A DNA stretch of 4,971 nucleotides from a virus (Duplodnaviria > Heunggongvirae > Uroviricota > Caudoviricetes): IMG/VR virus record IMGVR_UViG_2698536476_000014. The stretch is one strand, 5' to 3'. The position numbers and the translations under genes are program-made. Shown here piece by piece: positions 724 to 2,392 of this stretch. Position 1 is the first letter of the stretch. Every line of letters begins with the position of its first letter. The notes under the pieces are model-generated. The model saw nothing but the letters and a program-made list of their open reading frames with translations, did no database searches and was not told where the DNA came from.

Positions 724-888
724 CTAGATTTTAAAGTATTTATCTTTTAGAGATGTAGATGTAAAACTTTTCGCCTTTGAAAATTTTTTGTCATCAGAAG
801 GGCTTATGAACTCATCTTTTTTGTAGGGAACCGCTAATGCTGCATCACGTCTGCGAGGCAGCTTGCTTACTTCCTCGCGCTTTTTCAT
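724..888 (-). CDS. Possible small basic protein (54 aa, MKKREEVSKLPRRRDAALAVPYKKDEFISPSDDKKFSKAKSFTSTSLKDKYFKI), last gene of the kinase operon
   Basis: ATG (886-888) lies 2 nt after the kinase stop, with AAGGA 9 nt upstream. The stop abuts the terminator hairpin. It is absent from the ORF track, presumably because of a length cutoff. No homolog recognised. Confidence 0.3.
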   Translation of the reverse strand: MKKREEVSKLPRRRDAALAVPYKKDEFISPSDDKKFSKAKSFTSTSLKDKYFKI

Positions 889-890
889 GA

Positions 891-1937
891 TCAGTTATCC
901 TTTAATAACCTATACAGTTTTGTAGGGGTACATCCTGAGGATATTGTTAAGTTCGTAGCACGCCTTTTCCGCCCATCATCGTATAAACGAAAACCAGTAG
1001 TAGACGAATTTTCTGCGTCAAAAACTATAGACAGTATAGCGTCCCCAGACTTTTTTTGCCATTCGCATGTGCCGTTAGTTGGTTTCGTCATCTGTAGACG
1101 CCAGTCAAGAACGCCATCACTTATAGCTGAGAGATCGTTTAGTACATCTAGTACGGATTGATATCTTTCATTTGGATCTACATGAATGCATTTGTTCACT
1201 ATTGTTATTAATTTTTTATGTATATGGGGAGGATACTCTTTTAATGGATAGCAGCCATTAATTATCGACTCTCTGAGTTGTTCAATCGTGCTAAATGCAG
1301 ATCTTTCTCTTTCAAAATTATCATGTCCAACACACATTCTATATATGGTTAATCCTGCCTGATATATGTCATATGTGAAATTATAATCATTTGTTGATAA
1401 AGAAAAATATTCCGGTGGCACATGAAAATGATATCCAAACTCAGGCGCAGCTCTCGATTCCTCATTGACTAACTGAGATAATCCAAAGTCAGATAGCATG
1501 GCCTCATTTCTGTTTGATATCATAATGTTATTAGGTTTTATATCAAAATGCATAAGACCTTTTGAGTGTATATGATAAAGTCCACTTAAAAATTGAATGG
1601 AATACCGTATTATCTCCCTGCTTGTAAGATTATTTTTTTTCATTAATTGGTTTAGCGAACCATTATGATAAAATGGCATGGCTATATAGATATTGCTCTC
1701 ACATTGAGCAGCATACTGAACTTGCACAATATTTGGATGTGCATGTTTATAGAGAAGCCTTGCTTCATTAAAGTAGTCGTCGTGGTTAGTGTTTTCTTTT
1801 TTTTCTATTTCTTTAATCACCAAGTCATGAGCTAGGTGTCTGTCATGAGCCAGATATACTTTTGAAAAACAACCCTGTTCTTCTAGATCACTAATCCATT
1901 CGAATTCTACATCAGCTCTTTTGTATGGAGTTAGCAT
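891..1937 (-). CDS. stk: Eukaryotic-like (Hanks-type) protein kinase, 348 aa, in the lambda rexAB-equivalent position; resembles the prophage stk kinase of Stx phage 933W as I recall it
   Basis: Kinase motifs in the translation: beta3 Lys (LVIKEIEKK), catalytic loop HFDIKPNN, DFG (LSDFGLS), APE-like PPEY, and a degenerate glycine loop (QGCFSKV). There is a roughly 80-aa C-terminal extension. The gene symbol comes from recalled synteny, not a search. Confidence 0.75.
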   Translation of the reverse strand: MLTPYKRADVEFEWISDLEEQGCFSKVYLAHDRHLAHDLVIKEIEKKENTNHDDYFNEARLLYKHAHPNIVQVQYAAQCESNIYIAMPFYHNGSLNQLMKKNNLTSREIIRYSIQFLSGLYHIHSKGLMHFDIKPNNIMISNRNEAMLSDFGLSQLVNEESRAAPEFGYHFHVPPEYFSLSTNDYNFTYDIYQAGLTIYRMCVGHDNFERERSAFSTIEQLRESIINGCYPLKEYPPHIHKKLITIVNKCIHVDPNERYQSVLDVLNDLSAISDGVLDWRLQMTKPTNGTCEWQKKSGDAILSIVFDAENSSTTGFRLYDDGRKRRATNLTISSGCTPTKLYRLLKDN

Positions 1938-2392
1938 CCCCTTACCTCCGCAGATAGTGCAGCCAAAACAGCTTCATTTGTTTCAGTTGTAAAACCAGAA
2001 TTATCGATTCCATTTATATTGCGGTGTGACTTCAATATTTCTTTATACTCGATCTCTGTTAGGTTCAATGATGATTTCATGCCAGATTTTCTAATAGTGT
2101 AATATTTTCTTACATCACTGCTTGAAAATGCTTCTTGAATAACAGCTTCTATATAAAGGCGGTCAATGCTAAGATTATCAGAGTTTGATTCAGTAACGCG
2201 TATGGCAGCTAATTCAACATTATATAAATTAAGAATGTCGAGGATGTTATTTCTCACATACTTTAATTTTTCTGGTGTGTCTAAGGTCGAAGGTATTTTA
2301 ATAACATCAACACATTTGAGTGCAGACTCATTAGTGCAATATACAACAAAAGATGTAACTTTGGGCGCCGCTCTAACACCTAGTATTCTCAT
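1931..2392 (-). CDS. Hypothetical protein, 153 aa, translationally coupled to the kinase
   Basis: Its stop overlaps the kinase start (ATGCTAA, 7-nt overlap). Same AT-rich composition as the kinase. No domain recognised. Confidence 0.6.
   Translation of the reverse strand: MRILGVRAAPKVTSFVVYCTNESALKCVDVIKIPSTLDTPEKLKYVRNNILDILNLYNVELAAIRVTESNSDNLSIDRLYIEAVIQEAFSSSDVRKYYTIRKSGMKSSLNLTEIEYKEILKSHRNINGIDNSGFTTETNEAVLAALSAEVRGC

Follow-up and report, generated by a model that had tools for sequence, protein, structure and literature searches.

The question raised by this locus is whether the protein kinase Stk, which is encoded downstream of the cI repressor gene in the Shiga toxin (Stx) phage 933W, acts alone or together with the products of the two small genes that enclose it. 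The locus was analysed in a 4,971-nucleotide stretch of IMG/VR virus record IMGVR_UViG_2698536476_000014, and the whole of this stretch is called the window in the following. A sequence-only reading of the window had pointed to three open reading frames (ORFs), encoding a Hanks-type kinase, a translationally coupled protein and possibly a small basic protein, as a candidate exclusion system that might have several components and be only partly described. With respect to the three ORFs it was correct in every detail, and they are listed here with the gene names of the 933W record.

724 to 888, minus strand: L0081, 54-aa basic protein (net charge approximately +8), third gene of the cassette; matches phrog_4063 with E 2.5e-39
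891 to 1937, minus strand: stk, 348 aa, Hanks-type kinase (residues 1-270) followed by a beta-rich C-terminal domain (278-348); assigned by identity to 933W and by Pfam Pkinase (E 2e-46)
1931 to 2392, minus strand: L0083 (named res in phi24B), 153-aa RuvC-fold protein lacking the first catalytic Asp

As the comparisons described below show, stk lies in the middle of three translationally coupled genes that form a self-contained cassette, encoding a RuvC-fold protein, a kinase and a basic protein of approximately 55 residues, and this cassette moves as a unit between different settings in several bacterial phyla, among them prophage immunity regions and defence islands.

The kinase itself is familiar. 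Window positions 500-3000 are 100% identical to 933W (AF125520 / NC_000924), phi24B, Stx2 converting phage I and 36 other phage records, the 348-aa ORF is annotated as stk in the matching Stx-phage records, and protein cluster P0224 was 100% identical in the comparison with 933W stk. In the 933W record the genes carry the names L0081, stk, L0083, L0084 and cI, and a terminator (tM) and a promoter (pM) are marked. Because of this identity and the gene names in the record, it is practically certain that the window kinase is 933W Stk, with the function known for that protein. The Hanks-type assignment held, with catalytic residues K42 (VIKEI), D132, K134 and N137 (HFDIKPNN) and D150-F151-G152 all intact and invariant across 38 homologues, as are W279 and W293 of the C-terminal domain.

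The literature on 933W Stk (Tyler & Friedman 2004; Friedman et al. 2011), whose primary papers are represented here through citing works, describes a eukaryote-like tyrosine kinase whose gene is transcribed from pRM together with cI and which aborts infection by phage HK97. Its expression is reported to be driven by pRM and confined to stable lysogeny, the kinase being nearly silent in uninfected cells and activated on HK97 infection, and the exclusion is ascribed to the kinase activity itself; both the tyrosine phosphorylation induced by HK97 and the exclusion of HK97 are taken from these sources only. The sequence-only reading had named the abortive infection on HK97 superinfection correctly, and the co-expression with cI in lysogens, which it had deduced from gene order, agrees with the published co-transcription. 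These accounts present Stk as a textbook case of abortive infection caused by a prophage and treat it alone; the RuvC-fold and 54-aa partners are not discussed in them. The core of the finding, 933W Stk as an HK97-aborting kinase, is already known and the kinase adds nothing new; the residual interest lies in the two conserved, unstudied partner genes.

Linkage of stk to L0083 and L0081

In the window the three genes are joined in the way expected for the translational coupling that had been proposed: the ATG of stk overlaps the stop codon of L0083 by 7 nt (ATGCTAA), and the ATG of L0081 is found 2 nt past the stk stop (TGATCATG). For the IMG/VR comparison, relatives of L0083 and Stk were fetched and all window proteins were mapped onto them. 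In the diverged loci a homologue of L0083 (51-85% identity) was present directly upstream of the kinase (48-81%) in every locus with room for it, and the repressor in loci keeping this pair was different or unrecognisable.

The family of L0083 is large, with 448 representatives at E<1e-3 and 253 at E<1e-10 in an exhaustive profile search. Bacterial loci were scanned in a profile-guided manner with one genome per species, using the narrower alignment A3, the 66-sequence alignment A2 being too diverse, and this gave 79 loci from Alpha-, Beta- and Gammaproteobacteria, Cyanobacteria and Polyangium. In 77 of the 79 loci a Stk-like kinase gene starts between -8 and +2 nt from the RuvC-like stop codon, the two genes overlapping by 4-8 nt in bacterial loci, and the kinase shows 35-61% identity, usually over the full length including the C-terminal domain. 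One of the two exceptions is a 1.1-kb contig that ends at that very point, and the other, the single clear exception, is a locus without a kinase, in a Sphingomonas metagenome-assembled genome (MAG), where the RuvC-like member stands beside thiC (L178:5001-5456); this locus may be a decayed cassette. The pair was also present in five out of five further look-ups, namely in Elizabethkingia (Bacteroidota), in P. aeruginosa, in a Bacteroidota MAG and for two peripheral members of 174 aa with 29-36% identity; the cassette ranges from enterobacterial prophages to Bacteroidota and Cyanobacteria. The distances of L0083-type proteins and kinases are correlated over 57 loci (Mantel r 0.85, with none of 999 permutations as high).

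The third gene follows the same pattern. In most loci an ORF of 49-69 aa begins between -4 and +2 nt from the kinase stop codon. When jackhmmer was started from one distant ORF of this kind it retrieved the post-kinase ORF in 54 loci and nothing else, with smaller families accounting for 9 and 3 loci, and when it was started from L0081 it retrieved 23 ORFs, all of them post-kinase and all from Enterobacterales. In the L0081 family the length is kept at 54-55 codons and the ratio of nonsynonymous to synonymous substitution rates (dN/dS) is 0.1-0.65, with dS saturated. With its length conserved and dN/dS below 1, L0081 is a real gene under purifying selection. The sequence-only reading had let its suggestion of a multi-component system depend on conservation of the small ORFs with the kinase; both are conserved alongside it, and comparative genomics supports the suggestion.

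The surroundings of the cassette are far more variable. The gene upstream of the pair is an S24 or helix-turn-helix (HTH) repressor in only 5 of 63 loci, and the others have parts of restriction-modification systems or housekeeping genes in this position; in single loci the pair is found beside LlaJI restriction genes and ArdA, or beside BilD and a relaxase. The GC content in the window is 44-47% in cI and L0084 and 32-37% across L0083 and stk, with the step at the boundary between L0084 and L0083. The heterogeneous neighbours and the drop in GC content together mark the cassette as a mobile, self-contained unit. In two metagenome contigs (L255 and L259) the 174-aa RuvC-like variant and its kinase come directly after a gene with a BilD_N domain and two small ORFs, with an HTH repressor and a relaxase nearby, and these surroundings may represent a defence island on a mobile element.

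The partner proteins and a proposed mechanism

L0083 is labelled "RuvC-like Holliday junction resolvase" or "res" in phage records. Comparison of the L0083 sequence with the PDB gave chance hits only and the fold comparison alone was informative, assigning a complete RuvC / RNase H-like fold to the protein. Residues G5, R7, R47, R78, E82 and E87 are invariant in the family, and E68 and E140 nearly so. In an hhalign alignment with a probability of 5%, the L0083 segment ILGVRAAP stands opposite ILGIDPGS of E. coli RuvC, which implies that the metal-bridging Asp7 of RuvC is replaced by the invariant Arg7 in L0083; in the same alignment R/K65 tentatively takes the place of RuvC Glu66 at the end of strand 4. 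Of the acidic tetrad of RuvC (D7, E66, D/H138 and D141, E. coli numbering) only D141 has a positional match, which is E140 in the TNEA motif of the C-terminal helix. The Pfam RuvC model (PF02075) scored L0083 at 14.2 bits against a gathering cut-off of 22.2 bits (E 0.042), and NCBIfam gave no match for L0083. Sequence identity to RuvC resolvases is 12-15%, and unlike a resolvase gene L0083 is encoded in a lysogeny operon beside a kinase gene and not with recombination genes. Since the position of the first metal-binding Asp of RuvC is occupied by an invariant Arg, L0083 is probably not a resolvase, and since the catalytic tetrad is not complete, the "Holliday junction resolvase" annotations should not be taken at face value.

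A different possibility is that L0083, with its active site re-wired, is a working nuclease and the real effector, and that the role of the kinase is to detect infection and to activate L0083 by phosphorylating it. The complete RuvC fold and the invariant or nearly invariant E68, E82, E87 and E140 speak for this explanation, and nucleases are the commonest defence effectors. It is nevertheless very improbable in our judgement, given the invariant R7 at the metal-bridging position, the R/K65 at the E66 position (in the low-confidence alignment just mentioned) and the ascription of the exclusion to kinase activity in the published accounts cited above.

The small third protein is most easily described from the 54-locus family, whose members have two short conserved motifs with a variable basic linker in between. 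The N-terminal motif is (K/R)-N-D-x-x-x-Y-x-x-R-S-x-L and the C-terminal motif is F-x-x-A-x-I-D-x-x-x-Y-(I/V/F)-x-F, and L0081 (…KLPRRRDAAL…SFTSTSLKDKYFKI) resembles both.

The structure of Stk offers one further hint. The AlphaFold2 model (pLDDT 88.8, predicted template modelling score 0.90) has the kinase domain extending to approximately residue 270, followed by a compact C-terminal domain (278-348) of four strands and a helix with pLDDT of approximately 94 and a fixed orientation. The best Foldseek matches of the full-length model are AMPK alpha chains, over approximately 365 columns that reach into the C-terminal domain by which AMPK binds its regulatory subunits, in a search dominated by kinase domains. 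That the C-terminal domain of Stk serves as a partner-docking module is only a lead from this model.

We propose that the three proteins would be made in a fixed ratio and assemble into a latent complex, with the kinase as effector. Its regulatory or sensing subunit would be the RuvC-fold protein L0083, which either holds the kinase off or recognises a phage protein or branched phage DNA, and L0081, with two conserved Tyr-containing motifs and a variable basic linker, could be a pseudosubstrate, a clamp or the first substrate. A product of the superinfecting phage would free the kinase, and the runaway phosphorylation would stop the cell before progeny are made. Taken as one combined statement, this overall explanation has a probability of approximately 0.6 in our estimate. 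That L0083 and L0081 are functional parts of the same system as Stk is the more secure component and is likely to be correct, while any specific role for each partner is doubtful. In its most pointed form, Stk would be the effector of a widespread and undescribed three-component defence cassette in which an inactivated resolvase fold is the infection sensor, directed at branched DNA from phage recombination or replication or at a phage protein acting on L0083, and the Tyr-motif peptide of approximately 55 residues is a pseudosubstrate latch; for this form we see the chances as even.

Several points weigh against the explanation. In the literature we found no experiment on L0083 or L0081. The invariant and nearly invariant glutamates E68, E82, E87 and E140 leave room for L0083 being catalytically active. 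A hidden Markov model (HMM) of the distant small ORFs does not detect L0081 significantly, so that the homology is without statistical support, and for this reason our claim for the third gene is limited to position, size and style of motif and does not extend to homology across phyla. Single-gene kinase defences exist, PD-T4-6 among them, which functions as a lone cloned ORF. Finally, stk cloned alone on a plasmid reportedly gave exclusion of HK97; if so, the partners are not strictly required for exclusion and would be modulators, and the near-absolute linkage would be left unexplained.

Stk alone, toxin-antitoxin modules and related systems

The last two of these points lead to the main rival, which is that Stk works alone as a single-gene abortive-infection kinase, like staphylococcal Stk2 and PD-T4-6, and that L0083 and L0081 are independent cargo, L0083 for example being a genuine Holliday-junction resolvase. 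The resolvase labels in the phage records are in line with it, and so is the outcome in PADLOC, the check recommended by the sequence-only reading, which recognised the kinase (PD-T4-6 and mad6 models) and had no model for either partner. We nevertheless regard this rival as unlikely. It does not account for the near-absolute linkage with overlapping codons, which is kept across phyla and outside phages, or for the co-divergence of L0083 and the kinase. Further, the neighbouring gene L0084 comes and goes freely in the same operon, which shows how unlinked cargo behaves at this locus. The resolvase part of the rival is at odds with the invariant Arg at the first catalytic Asp and the Pfam RuvC score below the cut-off, and also with the expression of L0083 in the lysogen and not with lytic recombination genes. 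In phi24B, which has the identical sequence here, the products of res (L0083) and vb_24B_13c (L0084) were found by two-dimensional polyacrylamide gel electrophoresis to be restricted to lysogens and are encoded downstream of cI.

PD-T4-6 (Vassallo et al. 2022) and staphylococcal Stk2 (Depardieu et al. 2016) are likewise Hanks-type kinases with an abortive-infection type of defence, and the PADLOC PD-T4-6 profiles match Stk with a best E of 1e-37, the match covering the kinase domain only. The original PD-T4-6, however, is a single ORF of 436 aa (positions 62620-63930 of its contig, 1,311 bp) that was cloned with 179 and 232 bp of flanking DNA and works alone, whereas Stk is 348 aa long, has a C-terminal domain of its own and is coupled to partner genes in nearly all loci. 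Because of this architectural difference, the PD-T4-6 score that defence-finding tools give the locus does not fit it. The best PADLOC match of Stk is mad6 (E 7e-50). Membership of the MADS system was considered and rejected: Stk scored 122 bits against the 460-bit cut-off of the NCBIfam model antiphage_MADS6, and none of the other MADS genes is found nearby. Stk works like the PD-T4-6 and MAD6 kinases, yet it belongs to neither family.

The other rival of interest is a toxin-antitoxin-like module, with the kinase as toxin, the RuvC-fold protein as labile antitoxin and a small third component (chaperone-like or HipS-like), in which infection halts synthesis of the antitoxin or degrades it and thereby frees the kinase. 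It would be one particular form of the explanation we prefer. Type II toxin-antitoxin operons typically have a small upstream gene that overlaps the start of the next one, as is seen here with 4-8 nt at the kinase start, the kinase was never seen without a partner in the loci surveyed, and Stk has little activity in uninfected cells according to the accounts available. Kinase toxins with two partners are established, as in HipBST. The likeness to HipBA and HipBST consists of a growth-stopping protein kinase in a tight operon with small partner genes, HipBST being tripartite, but in the Pfam scan Stk was a Pkinase with no HipA domains, and the partners had no HTH, L0083 being of RuvC fold. L0083 thus lacks the HTH or other DNA-binding domain usual in antitoxins, and its conservation exceeds that of the kinase (mean pairwise distances 0.47 and 0.51, respectively), which is unusual for an antitoxin. 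A trigger-sensing model accounts at least equally well for the reported activation of Stk by one specific phage. On balance we find the toxin-antitoxin version improbable.

Returning to a sensing complex with Stk as its effector, the partnership of L0083 and L0081 with the kinase was absent from the searched literature, from PADLOC 2.0 and from NCBIfam. Work on this example, now 15 years old, has thus probably dealt with only a third of a system, and the two strictly co-inherited partners are direct and cheap handles on the latency of Stk in lysogens and on its activation by phage. Defence-finding tools score the locus as the single-gene system PD-T4-6, and a dedicated three-gene model would re-annotate hundreds of loci.

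L0084, the lysogeny operon and the prophage remnant

Between cI and the 153-aa ORF lies a further gene, L0084, which was missing from the sequence-only reading as it is outside the coordinates that were covered there.

2460 to 2801, minus strand: L0084, 113-aa DUF3024 protein (Pfam DUF3024, E 1e-30), PADLOC candidate PDC-S43 (E 4e-41)
2444 to 2458 and 2815 to 2829, no strand assigned: exact 15-nt direct repeat CCAAACGTCTCTTCA around L0084, with one copy preceding this gene and the other preceding L0083

The DUF3024 match is strong, at 106.5 bits against the Pfam cut-off of 24.9 bits. L0084 was considered as a fourth component of the cassette and rejected, since the gene frequently occurs apart from the kinase, differs in GC content and lies between the two repeat copies. 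Of 67 viral loci with L0084, 41 have no kinase cassette, among them phages whose cI and N are identical. L0084 is a separate cargo gene in the same operon with a GC content like that of the immunity genes, and it may be a second, independent defence gene; PADLOC has scored one O157:H7 strain for both PD-T4-6 and PDC-S43. Two copies of the 15-nt repeat are present in most 933W-type loci, and they look like an insertion junction for cargo genes or a site of module exchange. Variable cargo occupies the slot between L0084 and tM/nutL (L186-L252), and one of the loci without the kinase cassette (L194:3840-5380) has an unrelated 177-aa ORF there. No promoter was evident in the region corresponding to window 2393-2861 in a study of phi24B (PMC3342100), and our consensus scan gave only a weak promoter-like site on the minus strand (2983->2955) within the 3' end of cI.

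In another study (PMC6989128) a 933W lysogen is reported to exclude lambda approximately 1e6-fold independently of cI immunity, and the exclusion is relieved when the immunity region of lambda is replaced by that of 21, 434 or P22. The Stk cassette and L0084 are obvious candidates for this lambda exclusion.

The window as a whole contains the lysogeny operon of a 933W-type Stx prophage, in the order pRM, cI, L0084, L0083, stk, L0081 and tM, and the remaining features are as follows.

3577 to 3604, minus strand: pRM (pM), promoter for cI and the downstream genes; transferred from the NC_000924 annotation
2862 to 3569, minus strand: cI repressor, first gene of the operon; Peptidase_S24 and HTH_3, 100% identical to 933W cI
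704 to 725, minus strand: tM (933W) or tRM (phi24B), intrinsic terminator at the end of the cI-stk operon; 8-pair stem (6 G-C) followed by TTCTTTGCC
53 to 235, minus strand: N antiterminator gene, cut after codon 60 by the left insertion sequence (IS) end; 60-aa ORF against 127 aa in 933W and L194
1 to 56, no strand assigned: IS3-family (IS629-like) terminus with its inverted partner at 4812-4867; 56-nt inverted repeat, 98% complementary

The position of pRM was obtained by subtracting 2001 from the coordinate in locus L001. The intrinsic terminator that had been proposed to close the operon is present as a hairpin and T-run at 725->704, directly past L0081, and is annotated as the terminator of the pM transcript in NC_000924 and HM208303. 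The cassette also lies where the sequence-only reading had placed it, in the position of lambda rexAB between cI and nutL/N. The likeness to RexAB extends to transcription from pRM, expression in lysogens and, as far as the published accounts describe it, abortive exclusion of a heterologous phage, but the Pfam scan of the cassette ORFs gave no match to a Rex family, and the two systems are alike in position and function only. RexAB, in the established model, consists of a sensor and a membrane ion channel and is not a kinase.

The 933W-type immunity region covers window 56-4815 at 100% identity in E. coli O157:H7 prophages including that of EDL933, and most of the window is present in 161 of 5,426 complete E. 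coli genomes; the exact cassette is thus carried by approximately 3% of these genomes, mainly within Stx prophages. The window shares with 933W the gene, the operon from pRM-cI to stk-tM and the location between cI and N, and the kinase is identical, but the window copy resides in a prophage remnant in which IS ends cut N after codon 60 and O within its iterons. The remnant is without full-length N and O, and the operon from pRM to tM is intact. The IS end is annotated as "IS3 family transposase" in matching E. coli genomes. None of the complete E. coli genomes of the collection had both IS junctions in one piece, the left junction of the window was not shared by E. coli hit H40, and an Rfam search of the window gave no match. 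The right IS terminus runs on into the C-terminus of a transposase up to position 4971 (ORF 4855-4965, minus strand). On the plus strand the window carries cro, cII and the 5' portion of O, and a 19-nt inverted repeat (95% complementary) at 402-420 and 3909-3927, within or beside the annotated nutL and nutR, flanks the immunity region.

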